Below are positions 1 through 5,936 of a stretch of DNA of 5,936 nucleotides, one piece after another (position 1 is the first letter of the stretch; every line of letters starts with the position of its first letter). This stretch comes from a virus (taxonomy: Duplodnaviria; Heunggongvirae; Uroviricota; Caudoviricetes). The stretch lies in the IMG/VR virus record IMGVR_UViG_2537561692_000011. The stretch is one strand, 5' to 3'. The notes beneath the pieces were generated by a model that did not search any database, was not told the DNA's origin, and was given only the letters and a program-made list of their open reading frames with translations. A program made the translations under genes and the position numbers.

Positions 1-1053
1 TGCTGCGCTGGCCTGTTCAGTGGCTTCGCCAGCCTTCGTTGTGGCTGTTGAAGCAGACGATGCGGCACTTTCTGCCGATTTTCCGGCGGCGGTGGCACTG
101 GCTGAGGCCTGCCCGGCACTTGTTGACGCGGCACTGGCAGACGACGCAGCCGCTGTTTTTGAGCCTGCCGCAGCCGAGGCGCTCTGTCCCGCTGCCGTTT
201 CAGAAGACCTGGCGTTTGTCTCAGACGTTTTTGCCGCCTTCGCGGAATTGCCTGCCGCCGTTGCCGAGGAAGCGGCACTACTGGCGCTTGATGATGCGTT
301 CGTTTCTGATGATTTCGCTGCCTCTTTTGAGGCCGCCGCATCCCGGGCTGAGGTGGCAGCTTCTGACGCTTTCGTGGTCGCGGTGGATGCAGAAGTGGCT
401 GCAGATTTTTGTGACGCTGCAGCATTCGTTTCTGACGTTTTCGCCGCACCAGCACTGGTAGCCGCCGCGCTTTTTGAGGACTCTGCAGCGGCAGCACTTT
501 TTGATGCTTCAGTAGCCTTTGTTGATGCCGTTCCTGCGCTGGAAGACGCTGACTGAGCCGACGTCGCGGCCTGCCCGGCTGATGTGCTGGCTGCACGTGC
601 TGAGCCTGTAGCATCAGTCGCATGGGTTGCCGCCTCACGGGCTGATGTGCCGGCATCGCTGGCTGACTTCTTCGCGGCTGCCGTGTTCTGTGCCACCGCG
701 GACGCGTTACGCGCCACCTCTTCCACCATCAGTTCAAAGCGGCGCAGTGCCTCCGGACGGACATCATCCTCCGTCATGGCACCGAGAAAATCATTCAGCG
801 TACCCGGTTGTGAGTCTTCATACACGGTGATGGTCCCGGCATGCGATGGCGGGAAGCCTTCCACCAACAGAATAACGCTGTACTGACCGTACTCAACGTC
901 CATGCTGTAACGCCCGGCTTCATCCGGATTTTCTGAGGCCACCGTGTTCGCCACCACCGTGGTGCTGTTACGTTTTGCTTTCAGCTGGATTGTACAGTTC
1001 TGTACCGGTTTACCTGCACCGTCTTTCAGTACACCTGAAATCTTTACTGCCAT
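1..1053 (-). CDS. stf: Side tail fibre protein Stf, N-terminal 351 codons (partial; gene continues beyond window position 1)
   Basis: ATG at 1053..1051 (plus-strand 'cat'), preceded by the Shine-Dalgarno-like GGGGTGA. I checked every minus-strand codon in this frame from 1053 to 1 and found no stop. Translation begins MAVKISGVLKDGAGKPVQNCTIQLKAKRNSTTVV...GRYSMDVEYGQYSVIL...HAGTITVYEDSQPGTLNDFL, which I recognise as the lambda Stf (orf-401) N-terminus, followed by an Ala/Ser/Thr-rich low-complexity shaft. Not listed in the ORF track because the stop lies outside the window. Confidence 0.85.
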   Translation of the reverse strand, partial: MAVKISGVLKDGAGKPVQNCTIQLKAKRNSTTVVANTVASENPDEAGRYSMDVEYGQYSVILLVEGFPPSHAGTITVYEDSQPGTLNDFLGAMTEDDVRPEALRRFELMVEEVARNASAVAQNTAAAKKSASDAGTSAREAATHATDATGSARAASTSAGQAATSAQSASSSAGTASTKATEASKSAAAAESSKSAAATSAGAAKTSETNAAASQKSAATSASTATTKASEAATSARDAAASKEAAKSSETNASSSASSAASSATAAGNSAKAAKTSETNARSSETAAGQSASAAAGSKTAAASSASAASTSAGQASASATAAGKSAESAASSASTATTKAGEATEQASAA

Positions 1054-1063
1054 ATTCACCCCA

Positions 1064-1091
1064 CAAAAAAGCCCGCCTGAACCGGCGGGCT
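1064..1091 (-). terminator. Rho-independent terminator downstream of lom (minus-strand orientation)
   Basis: Perfect 8-bp stem, 1070-1077 (agcccgcc) pairing with 1084-1091 (ggcgggct), 6-nt loop. On the minus-strand transcript the hairpin is followed directly by a run of six U (complement of aaaaaa at 1064-1069). Lies between the lom stop (1118) and the stf start (1053). No T-run follows on the plus strand, so it is unidirectional. Confidence 0.6.
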
Positions 1092-1117
1092 GTCATAACA
1101 CTGTGTTACCTGGCTAA

Positions 1118-1717
1118 TCAGAACTTATAACCAACACCCACGATGAAACCGTCAGTGCGCCAGTTGCCACTGCCGGAGCCTTCATAAGCGACATCAACGG
1201 CCACGGATTCGGTCGGGTTAAACTGCACGCCAGCCCCCCACGCCAGAGACGTGTTGCTGTGGCGACCGTCATCACTTCCGGTCAGCACATCGTGCTTTTT
1301 CCCCTTGTTGTCAGTTACGCGAAGATAATCCCCGGAGAAAGTCGACACACGGCTGTAAGCCACACCCGCCATCGCATACGCGCTGAACCATTCATTCACG
1401 CGCACAGACGGCCCCGCCATTACGCTGAACCAGCGGTTACGAACGGAATCTTCATGCCAGCGGGTATCGCTGTAGTGCGTTTTTTGCTCATCCTCAGCAT
1501 TGGCATAACTGAAGGACGTAATCAGCCCCAGCGCGTCCGTAAACTCATAACGGTATTTCACGTTAATCCCGTTCAGATTATCGCTGCCGGGAGCGTTCGT
1601 ACGGGCATGAAGATACCCCGCGCTCAGTGTGGACTGATGTTCAGACGCCCATGCAGGCGCACCGGATACGGACAGACAGATGGCTGCGGACAAAATGACT
1701 GCACAAACTTTACGCAT
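1118..1717 (-). CDS. lom: Lom outer-membrane protein (Ail/PagC/OmpX-family 8-stranded beta-barrel; lambdoid lysogenic-conversion 'moron')
   Basis: Complete 199-aa ORF, ATG at 1717..1715, TGA at 1120..1118, RBS GAGAGG about 6 nt upstream. Translation MRKVCAVILSAAICLSVSGAPAWA|SEHQSTLSAGYLHARTNAPGSDNLNGINVKYRYEFTD...WGAGVQFNPTESVAVDVAYEGSGSGNWRTDGFIVGVGYKF is near-collinear with lambda Lom as I recall it. It has a typical signal peptide with an AWA-S cleavage motif and the C-terminal aromatic residue (...YKF) characteristic of outer-membrane beta-barrels. Confidence 0.93.
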   Translation of the reverse strand: MRKVCAVILSAAICLSVSGAPAWASEHQSTLSAGYLHARTNAPGSDNLNGINVKYRYEFTDALGLITSFSYANAEDEQKTHYSDTRWHEDSVRNRWFSVMAGPSVRVNEWFSAYAMAGVAYSRVSTFSGDYLRVTDNKGKKHDVLTGSDDGRHSNTSLAWGAGVQFNPTESVAVDVAYEGSGSGNWRTDGFIVGVGYKF

Positions 1718-1741
1718 AATTACCTCTCGCTTTTCTGCAAT

Positions 1742-1765
1742 AAAAAAGGCGCCATTTCTGGCGCC
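1742..1765 (-). terminator. Rho-independent terminator immediately downstream of J (minus-strand orientation)
   Basis: Palindromic GC stem ggcgcc (1748-1753) / ggcgcc (1760-1765) with loop atttct. On the minus-strand transcript it is followed by UUUUUUAUU (complement of aaaaaa at 1742-1747). Sits about 20 nt after the J stop (1787..1785) and about 25 nt before the lom RBS. Confidence 0.55.
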
Positions 1766-1784
1766 CGTATATGGGTTATAAAAT

Positions 1785-5200
<3,416 letters not shown>

Positions 5201-5222
5201 TCGTCATGCTCCATAAACGATA

Positions 5223-5242
5223 AAACCGCCCGGAGGCGGTTT
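5223..5242 (-). other. Intergenic GC-rich hairpin between I and J
   Basis: Perfect inverted repeat aaaccgcc (5223-5230) / ggcggttt (5235-5242) with 4-nt loop cgga, in the 58-nt I-J spacer. On the minus-strand transcript it is followed by UUUUAUCGUUUAU and then the J RBS (GGAG). Possibly an attenuating or stabilising structure; function unknown. Confidence 0.3.
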
Positions 5243-5260
5243 CACATAAAACATTTTGCA

Positions 5261-5902
5261 TCAGCGACCAATCACCACAACCTGACCACCTCCCCTTCGT
5301 CTGCCGTGCTGATCTCCTGAGAAACCACCGTGACCCCACGCGCATTTCACCGTACAGAACGGCAGAACATTGCCCTGGGCAACCATGTTATCCAGTGAGG
5401 AGAAATAGGTGTTCTGTTTGCCGTTATCTGTACTTGCTGCCGTGGGCGTCCTGGCTTTCGGTGCCAGCATCTGCGCCACCCGCCCAGGATCATACTGGCC
5501 CCTGCCGCATACATGCCCGATACAGCCGCGGCACCCAGCCAGCCCACAGGGTTCCACCATGCCACCGCAATCACGCCGCCCCCAGCACCACCTGAAAACA
5601 CCGCCACTTTTAGCTCCCGCCAGACGCGGCACGATATGGATCACGGCACCATTTGCCAGCGGCTCATTAAGACGGGCAGACAATTCGGTTTCACCTGCAT
5701 CACGCCCGGCAATGCGTACCTGATACCAGCCGTCGCTCAGTTTCTGACGAAACGCCGGGATCTGCATGGCCAGCGCCCGGATGGCTTCGGCCCCCGTTTT
5801 CACACGAAGGTCGATGCGGCGGCCAAATCGTTGCAAATCCCCGTAAAGGCAGATGCGTGCCATGCCCGGTGACGCCAGAGGGAGTGTGTGCGTCGCTGCC
5901 AT
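5261..5902 (-). CDS. I: Tail tip assembly protein I (lambda gpI homologue); full-length ORF is open but contains two internally compensated out-of-frame blocks, so it may be a pseudogene
   Basis: ATG at 5902..5900, TGA at 5263..5261, 213 codons. N-terminus MAATHTLPLASPGMARICLYGDLQRFGRRIDLRVKTGAEAIRALA...GAVIHIVPR.AGAKSGGVF and C-terminus ...GGQVVVIGR match lambda gpI, as does the internal segment VAQMLAPKARTP...TDNGKQNTYFSSLDNMVAQGNVLP. The stretches between (about 5478-5596 and 5292-5359) read as nonsense in this frame (RWCWGRRDCGG..., FCTVKCAWGHGG...). The gpI-like sequence there is found in an alternative frame instead (86-aa ORF 5347..5607: ...VIAVAWWNPVGWLGAAAVSGMYAAGASMILGG...). Confidence 0.75.
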   Translation of the reverse strand: MAATHTLPLASPGMARICLYGDLQRFGRRIDLRVKTGAEAIRALAMQIPAFRQKLSDGWYQVRIAGRDAGETELSARLNEPLANGAVIHIVPRLAGAKSGGVFRWCWGRRDCGGMVEPCGLAGCRGCIGHVCGRGQYDPGRVAQMLAPKARTPTAASTDNGKQNTYFSSLDNMVAQGNVLPFCTVKCAWGHGGFSGDQHGRRRGGGQVVVIGR

Positions 5903-5936
5903 TTGTCGGTATACCTCTCTCGTTTACTCAGTTGTT

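Follow-up and report, generated by a model that had tools for sequence, protein, structure and literature searches.

The position of lom between the phage genes J and stf, the protein family to which it belongs, its label as a moron and the hairpins that flank it are already textbook or database knowledge. Lambda lom has been called a moron (PMC3594210), and the features of a moron that we drew from this source are extra DNA, an own promoter, an own terminator, a distinct base composition, expression in the prophage, and dispensability for lytic growth. Expression of lambda lom in lysogens has been reported (PMC7067206, PMC1151598). In contrast to these reports, lom of lysogens escaped detection in one array study, according to which knowledge of its promoter, which is unmapped, is scarce (PMC2147009). 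According to papers citing ribosome profiling, expression of Lom is strong during the lytic cycle (PMC9836094), and a study using CRISPRi found lambda lom to be non-essential for plaque formation (PMC10695390). An adhesion phenotype of lambda lom is cited in PMC3594210, and adhesion is the function classically ascribed to it. In a preprint, overexpressed lambda Lom was shown to protect strongly against lambda-vir, but not against T7, and Lom at lysogen levels did not block lambda-vir; the same preprint proposes that lambda Lom acts in kin-phage exclusion (bioRxiv 10.1101/2025.02.28.640651). The proteins Ail of Yersinia, OmpX of Escherichia coli, and PagC and Rck of Salmonella are eight-stranded barrels of the outer membrane and belong to the same Pfam family or clan (PF06316/PF13505) as the Lom protein studied here. 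Their genes are located on chromosomes or plasmids and are regulated in their own right, whereas the Lom protein studied here is the product of a prophage gene and has longer loops (199 amino acids compared to ~150 to 170 for Ail, OmpX, PagC, and Rck).

The DNA analyzed in this work (the window, 5,936 nt) is the entire contig AQCD01000047.1 of the draft assembly GCA_000358695.2. All its genes lie on the minus strand and are arranged in the order K′-I-J-lom-stf′. Over its full length (100%), the window was 97.9% identical to prophages that are intact in complete E. coli genomes, among them that of ETEC strain 602354 (NZ_CP025847), and its closest relatives were ETEC-type E. coli chromosomes. 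Many isolated lambdoid phages showed 93 to 95% identity to the window. A median of 3 places per E. coli genome matched the window, and of 5426 complete genomes of E. coli, 4798 (~88%) had the lom cassette, with a median of 2 copies. We consider it probable (roughly 0.85) that the window derives from an ordinary lambda-like prophage of E. coli, namely from its tail-tip end, and was recovered as a short repeat contig with artefactual base dropouts in J and I and with lom as a unit between terminators. The features on which this reading is based are as follows.

1..1053, minus strand: 5′ part of the side tail fibre gene stf (351 codons), whose reading frame runs on to the end of the contig; start codon ATG at 1053..1051.
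1064..1091, minus strand: predicted terminator after lom; stem-loop AGCCCGCC-GGTTCA-GGCGGGCT (1091..1070), followed by TTTTTT (1069..1064).
1118..1717, minus strand: lom, an uninterrupted open reading frame of 199 codons for an Ail/Lom-type outer-membrane protein.
1718..1740, minus strand: lom leader with the ribosome-binding site GAGAGG (1728..1723).
1741..1766, minus strand: predicted terminator between J and lom; stem-loop GGGCGCCA-GAAA-TGGCGCCT (1766..1747), followed by TTTTT, with a T tract at 1747..1742 that reaches to about 1741.
1785..5200, minus strand: J, tail tip and host specificity; correct in 1785..2645 and fragmented by dropped bases in 2646..5200.
2646..5597, no strand assigned: dropout zone with 66 events of 1 to 2 nt (71 bases) and 1 insertion; one of its borders falls within J and the other within I.
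5261..5902, minus strand: I, tail assembly; open reading frame of 213 amino acids, the intact homologue in NZ_CP025847 having 215.
5800..5936, minus strand: 3′ end of the tail gene K (C40 peptidase), truncated at the end of the contig; it overlaps the start of I and was placed by means of the alignment with NZ_CP025847, in which K and I overlap.

The stf part was translated without stops, matched the Pfam family phage_tail_N from end to end (1-134/134, E=1.3e-72) and showed 0 differences from NZ_CP025847. Its ATG (1053..1051) is located 12 nt past the T tract that follows lom. The last 305 amino acids of J matched Pfam Ig_GpJ_C and Phage_Tail_Tip, and J was aligned to the intact gpJ of NZ_CP025847. 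An Rfam scan of the window yielded 0 matching families.

The Lom protein encoded in the window matched Pfam Ail_Lom (PF06316) over its entire length (1-199/199, E=5.3e-127, 421.7 bits at a cut-off of 23) and in addition Pfam OMP_b-brl (PF13505) and PHROG 108, "Lom outer membrane protein" (E=4.7e-109). Reading the sequence by eye, we recognized a Sec-type signal peptide, MRKVCAVILSAAICLSVSGAPAWA/SEHQ (...SGAPAWA/SEHQ), and a C-terminus, ...VGVGYKF, that ends with the aromatic residue of the outer-membrane protein beta-signal. The preliminary description of this DNA had regarded lom as full length with a signal peptide and a barrel-type C-terminus, and the complete Ail_Lom match, the Sec-type leader, and the GYKF end agree with this view. 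The protein also matched the solved chain of lambda Lom (9wso_C, E=4.9e-49) and solved chains of OmpX and Ail (E~1e-19), with the whole mature region covered, and this homology points to an eight-stranded barrel fold. A single-sequence AlphaFold2 model of Lom was poor (pLDDT 40.3). When the entry 9wso of the PDB was searched with the C-terminus of J and the N-terminus of Stf, neither of the two matched it. The exact Lom protein of the window is on record solely on AQCD01000047.1, and all bases of this lom allele occur in other lom alleles. The unique combination of bases would fit natural mosaicism and a chimeric consensus alike.

As the sequence stands, many short open reading frames take the place of J and I is garbled, whereas lom is intact. 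Domesticated prophage remnants exist in E. coli. The preliminary description had proposed that, if the lesions in J and I are real, lom as host-beneficial cargo is retained in a damaged tail module while the structural genes around it are dead, which would mean that J and I are truly pseudogenised in a domesticated prophage remnant and that lom is kept by selection. A comparison with NZ_CP025847, the best intact reference, argued against this proposal. All of the 71 missing bases (66 events) and the single extra base were located in 2646..5597, and 0 indels were found in 1..2645. Outside lom and the dropout zone, 0 differences from the intact prophages (NZ_CP025847) were present in 1..2958. 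The ends of the zone (2646 and 5597) lie inside genes, and the clean part 1..2645 includes not only lom but also the N-terminal part of stf (1053 nt) and the final 860 nt of J, which are as clean as lom. Because the clean zone also covers the 5′ part of stf and the 3′ end of J, intactness is not specific to lom. A decaying prophage should carry mixed indels, nonsense and missense changes that are independent of polymorphism; what we found were 71 deletions versus 1 insertion, all of 1 to 2 nt, almost no substitutions, and no nonsense change among the lesions. Between 2646 and 4750, ~50 dropouts stood against ~6 substitutions, which is the reverse of natural decay. When genome contigs were searched for exact matches to a 61-nt stretch with four of the dropouts, 0 hits were obtained.

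The position of the dropped bases was informative with respect to their origin. When the sequences were compared with a panel of 7 intact J/I alleles, 59 of the 71 dropped sites (83%) coincided with polymorphic columns, compared to 530 of 2950 other sites (18%; Fisher p=1.4e-31), with ambiguous gap placement within same-base runs being allowed in this count. By a strict count with the same panel, 43 of the 71 dropped sites and 362 of the 2950 other sites were polymorphic; 12 of the 71 dropped sites were not variable in the 7-allele panel. Third codon positions were strongly preferred (third:first:second = 45:21:5, p=3.6e-8). We take the lesions in J and I to be an artefact rather than decay because they pick naturally variable, mostly synonymous sites. 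After the missing bases had been filled in, J encoded 1159 amino acids without an internal stop, with 21 nt differences and 2 amino-acid changes, and I encoded 215 amino acids without stops, with 15 nt differences and 4 amino-acid changes. The differences in the repaired genes look like those left by purifying selection. The open reading frame of 213 amino acids for I in the uncorrected sequence is accidental: it is one whose frame is restored by 6 dropouts and whose middle is out of frame, and Pfam Lambda_tail_I was matched by residues 14-97 alone.

We infer that the short contig is a consensus of at least two paralogous prophage copies from which discordant columns were dropped, and that the underlying J and I genes are intact. 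Bases would have been lost at columns where the co-assembled copies differ, for example by the stripping of ambiguity codes. In the clean part 1..2645 the prophage copies may be identical, or this part may be unique. The frameshifts of the "damaged tail module" are thus real as text and artefactual as biology, and the idea that the structural genes are dead is contradicted by the full-length filled-in products with their 2 and 4 amino-acid changes. The preliminary description had itself named error correction as the check on the frameshifts in J and I, with intact genes as the outcome that would make this an ordinary functional prophage; after correction both appear intact. Taking into account the one-sided deletions at naturally polymorphic, mostly third-codon sites, the borders of the zone within genes, and the nature of the sequence, a repeat contig (5.9 kb) in a draft assembly, we regard pseudogenisation as extremely improbable.

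The lesions could also be explained by random read error in an unpolished long-read or homopolymer-type stretch, without any collapse of paralogues. The presence of deletions alone in a single stretch is what is seen in unpolished long-read patches. Random errors, however, would neither coincide with sites that vary between alleles (83% versus 18%) nor favor third codon positions, and homopolymers were not enriched. The dropouts were distributed evenly over the four bases, and an identical neighboring base was present in 28 of 66 events, compared to ~44% expected by chance (an estimate). Homopolymer or base-specific sequencing error was rejected as the cause of the lesions, since no such bias was detectable. 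Read error of a random kind is in our opinion very unlikely, and we retain the collapse of paralogous copies as the explanation. More generally, when the structural genes of a prophage appear massively frameshifted in a short contig of a draft assembly, this can stem from the consensus and should not be taken as a sign of domestication, and an artefact caused by collapsed paralogues can be recognized by dropped bases on natural, mostly synonymous polymorphic sites.

The two hairpins flanking lom were analyzed with strict terminator criteria (at least 8 pairs, at least 6 of them G-C, and a T tract). A strict scan of the window gave 2 sites in total, which were the pair flanking lom, whereas 300 dinucleotide shuffles gave a mean of 0.09 sites under the same criteria, with P(>=2)=0.007. 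A generic, non-strict terminator scan found as many weak sites in the window as in shuffles. In the terminator after lom, 7 of the 8 base pairs of the stem are G-C. For a comparative analysis, 54 related loci were gathered via Lom protein similarity. The downstream hairpin was nearly invariant among them, with just wobble-type single changes. The upstream hairpin occurred in 16 sequence variants among the 54 loci, and full pairing was maintained in all of them. Compensatory double changes were found at 2 of the 8 pairs of the upstream stem, one leading from G-C via G-U to A-U and the other from C-G to U-A. Furthermore, the record of phage mEp460 annotates both hairpins as rho-independent terminators. 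Judged from these sequence properties, both hairpins are most plausibly real intrinsic terminators acting on the minus strand. The preliminary description had placed two minus-strand terminators at the borders of lom, and it is borne out by the fact that they were the sole strict sites (P(>=2)=0.007), by the covariation in the upstream stem, and by the annotation in mEp460.

Among the 16 upstream variants (54 loci), the 29 nt preceding the ATG (1746..1718, overlapping the T tract) were invariant, and across these 29 leader nucleotides the diversity in 48 distinct segments of related loci was 0. Nucleotide diversity in the 48 segments was 0.166 at the 3′ end of J, 0.02 to 0.04 in the part from terminator to terminator including lom, and 0.106 in stf; as the loci had been chosen by Lom similarity, the positions of the steps are informative and the low value inside lom is not. 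These steps suggest that the block from terminator to terminator behaves as a unit of mosaicism.

The hairpins might, under antiterminated transcription, serve as general punctuation of the late operon by stabilising the 3′ ends of J and lom mRNA segments or by providing sites for their processing, and would then not be boundaries specific to lom. This would be in line with the passage of Q-modified polymerase through such sites, so that no termination takes place in the lytic cycle, and with the putative terminators in the tail operons of other lambdoid phages (in HK97 before I and before J, in N15 before gene 21). The gap between J and stf in HK97, which has no lom gene, argues against it: no terminator-like hairpin was found there. 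In addition, the hairpins of the window lie within the low-diversity block that travels with lom. General punctuation is for these reasons rather unlikely, and boundaries belonging to the lom unit are the reading that we prefer.

The preliminary description had spoken of a "classic moron architecture" for lom. In agreement with this, lom is extra DNA when compared to HK97, in which J is directly followed by stf without lom, and it is followed by an own terminator (1064-1091) that is conserved in relatives and in lambda. Two other features of a moron, an own promoter and a contrast in base composition, were not found. A consensus scan of the minus strand detected no sigma-70-type site upstream of lom, and a weight-matrix scan of 1700-2100 returned weak candidates alone, which were located upstream of the terminator or overlapped the start codon; these searches cover sigma-70-type sites, and lom may have a non-sigma-70 or activator-dependent promoter. 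As the leader between the T tract and the ATG comprises only 29 nt, there is no room for a promoter in it. The motif TATAAA, which overlaps the T tract in lambda, is not conserved in the cassette of the window. With respect to base composition, the GC content of lom (0.55 to 0.57) was within the range of its flanks (0.48 to 0.52 at the 3′ end of J, 0.52 to 0.63 in stf, and 0.48 to 0.64 in the window). Independent transcription is functionally central to the moron concept; the evidence for it in the case of lom comes from the lambda literature only, and treating lom as a transcription unit of its own, as is usually done, remains an assumption. For the promoter of this much-cited moron, the sequence of the window has no obvious candidate.

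A different role for lom must be weighed here. The gene could be a late-expressed part of the receptor-recognition module that blocks adsorption of kin phages (superinfection exclusion or prevention of readsorption) rather than virulence cargo, with the hairpins serving mainly RNA stability or insulation and not a lysogenic unit of the moron type. The effect of overexpressed lambda Lom on lambda-vir and not on T7 (bioRxiv 10.1101/2025.02.28.640651) and the strong lytic-cycle expression described in papers citing ribosome profiling (PMC9836094) speak for such a role. In phage N15, cor and two genes for membrane proteins are located between J and the gene of the tail fibre, so that Lom would be analogous to Cor. 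We also searched phage records with a query of the concatenated flanks: the best 60 records having these J and stf flanks all span ~1560 nt between them with lom present, and a junction of J and stf lacking lom was found in none of these 60. This retention of lom, together with the fact that an own promoter was not found, is in favor of the exclusion role as well. The preprint's result that Lom at lysogen levels did not block lambda-vir and the adhesion phenotype cited in PMC3594210 point in the other direction. Taken together, we regard exclusion of kin phages as possible, with the odds leaning against it; it is compatible with the reading of the window as part of an ordinary prophage and does not exclude it. 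A further suggestion is that lom is not an independently transcribed moron of lysogenic conversion but a late part of the receptor module that blocks kin-phage adsorption, with an allele matched to the receptor-binding domain of the neighboring J, and that its lysogenic expression is leakage. This suggestion arises because no promoter could be recognized, a terminator precedes the conserved 29-nt leader, lom was never missing in the best 60 records, and N15 has cor in this slot; we consider it doubtful and put it forward tentatively.

Q-modified RNA polymerase reads through intrinsic terminators, as is established for lambda. In the window, the gap between J and stf is filled by the lom unit, in which a terminator is followed by the invariant 29-nt leader containing the ribosome-binding site and lom itself is followed by a second terminator. 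If the situation in lambda can be transferred, Q-modified RNA polymerase that started at pR′ would pass both hairpins in the lytic cycle and give late expression of lom and of stf/tfa. In the lysogen, again by analogy with lambda, the upstream hairpin would prevent stray transcription in the silent tail operon from reaching lom, and the downstream hairpin would keep any low-level transcription of lom out of stf.

A comparison with described systems places the locus as follows. The morons of HK97 and HK022 (Juhala et al. 2000) resemble lom of the window in being extra DNA between adjacent genes with an own terminator, and lom of the window differs from them in having no recognisable promoter, no GC contrast, and an additional terminator upstream. 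In N15, the slot after J is occupied by the small envelope proteins Cor, gp22, and gp23, with a putative terminator before the fibre gene, and cor is annotated as superinfection exclusion; the N15 proteins, however, are unrelated to Lom, and J is not separated from the first cargo gene by an annotated terminator. Phages mEp460 (NC_019716) and vB_EcoS-640R1 and the ETEC prophage in NZ_CP025847 share 93 to 98% DNA identity across the window and the same gene order; J and I are intact there, and lom of the window is a unique mix of known variants. The most direct counterpart is lambda lom (NP_040601), which is located in the same slot between J and stf (orf-401) and encodes a protein of the same family. 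Lambda has a hairpin with a T tract after J, a terminator after lom homologous to that of the window, the same GTGGGGTGAATATG start of stf, and a homologous leader with ribosome-binding site. The stem of the upstream hairpin is unrelated in the two (GGGCGCC.. in the window versus CGTCCGGG.. in lambda), and lambda Lom (206 amino acids) is clearly diverged from the Lom protein of the window (199 amino acids), with several alignment gaps. The lom gene of the window represents a new allele of the lambda lom cassette rather than a cassette of a new kind.

Compared with intact alleles, 71 bases are absent from the part of the window that covers much of J, the tail tip/host specificity gene, and I, the tail assembly gene (2646..5597), and 83% of them fall at positions that are polymorphic among intact J/I alleles. 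Third codon positions are preferred among the missing bases. This pattern of dropouts is a recognisable signature of a consensus in which paralogs were collapsed, and the bases were possibly lost when ambiguity codes were stripped. The combination of polymorphic sites and third codon positions could help to recognise genes in draft contigs that are wrongly taken for pseudogenes.

The 213-aa ORF at 5261..5902 (minus strand) resembles an intact I gene, but it is a frame-restored chimera in which six dropped bases put the middle out of frame; its match to Lambda_tail_I is confined to residues 14-97. The stf (side tail fibre) region at 1..640 encodes a long, repeat-like stretch rich in Ala, Ser, and Thr. 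On the plus strand, opposite stf, this stretch produces spurious long ORFs such as 20..556 and 39..461.

The exact Lom protein encoded at 1118..1717 is recorded on the window's own contig only, and the best DNA match of the lom cassette among 5426 complete E. coli genomes reached 98.6%. Relative to NZ_CP025847, the nearest whole-window reference, lom shows 15 differences, all located within the coding sequence between 1289 and 1698. As each of these is also present in other alleles, the window's allele has no private bases; it is a mosaic allele of natural origin or else a consensus sequence that is chimeric between paralogs.

Upstream of lom, the 29 nt from the T tract of the upstream terminator to the ATG (1718..1746) were identical in 16 of 16 upstream variants and in 48 of 48 distinct segments, whereas lom itself contains 130 variable columns. 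The leader is thus more conserved than the coding sequence that follows it. In some of the related loci collected with the Lom protein (L010-L089), the loop region of the upstream terminator (window 1747..1766) is reverse-complemented, CCAGAAATGG versus CCATTTCTGG. The arms around this loop are identical palindromic GGCGCC sequences, and the whole hairpin appears to have been inverted in one piece.

Lambda Lom is part of a solved structure, PDB entry 9wso, which contains two Lom chains. Its remaining chains were compared with the J C-terminus and the Stf N-terminus, and neither matched. The partner of Lom in this structure could inform Lom function.

The J-stf gap of HK97 (locus L091), which lacks lom, carries at 6050..6159 a 17-nt perfect inverted repeat, GGAAGGTGCGAATAAGT ... 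ACTTATTCGCACCTTCC, whose arms are separated by ~76 nt and enclose no annotated genes. The repeat may represent either a scar or some small element, in the place where other phages hold cargo. In N15 (locus L092), J and the tail fibre gene are separated by a slot (5528..7046) with the following features:

gp22, annotated as an outer membrane protein
gp23, annotated as membrane associated
cor, annotated as superinfection exclusion
a putative terminator after gp22/gp23/cor

The J-fibre junction looks like a general site of envelope-acting cargo.
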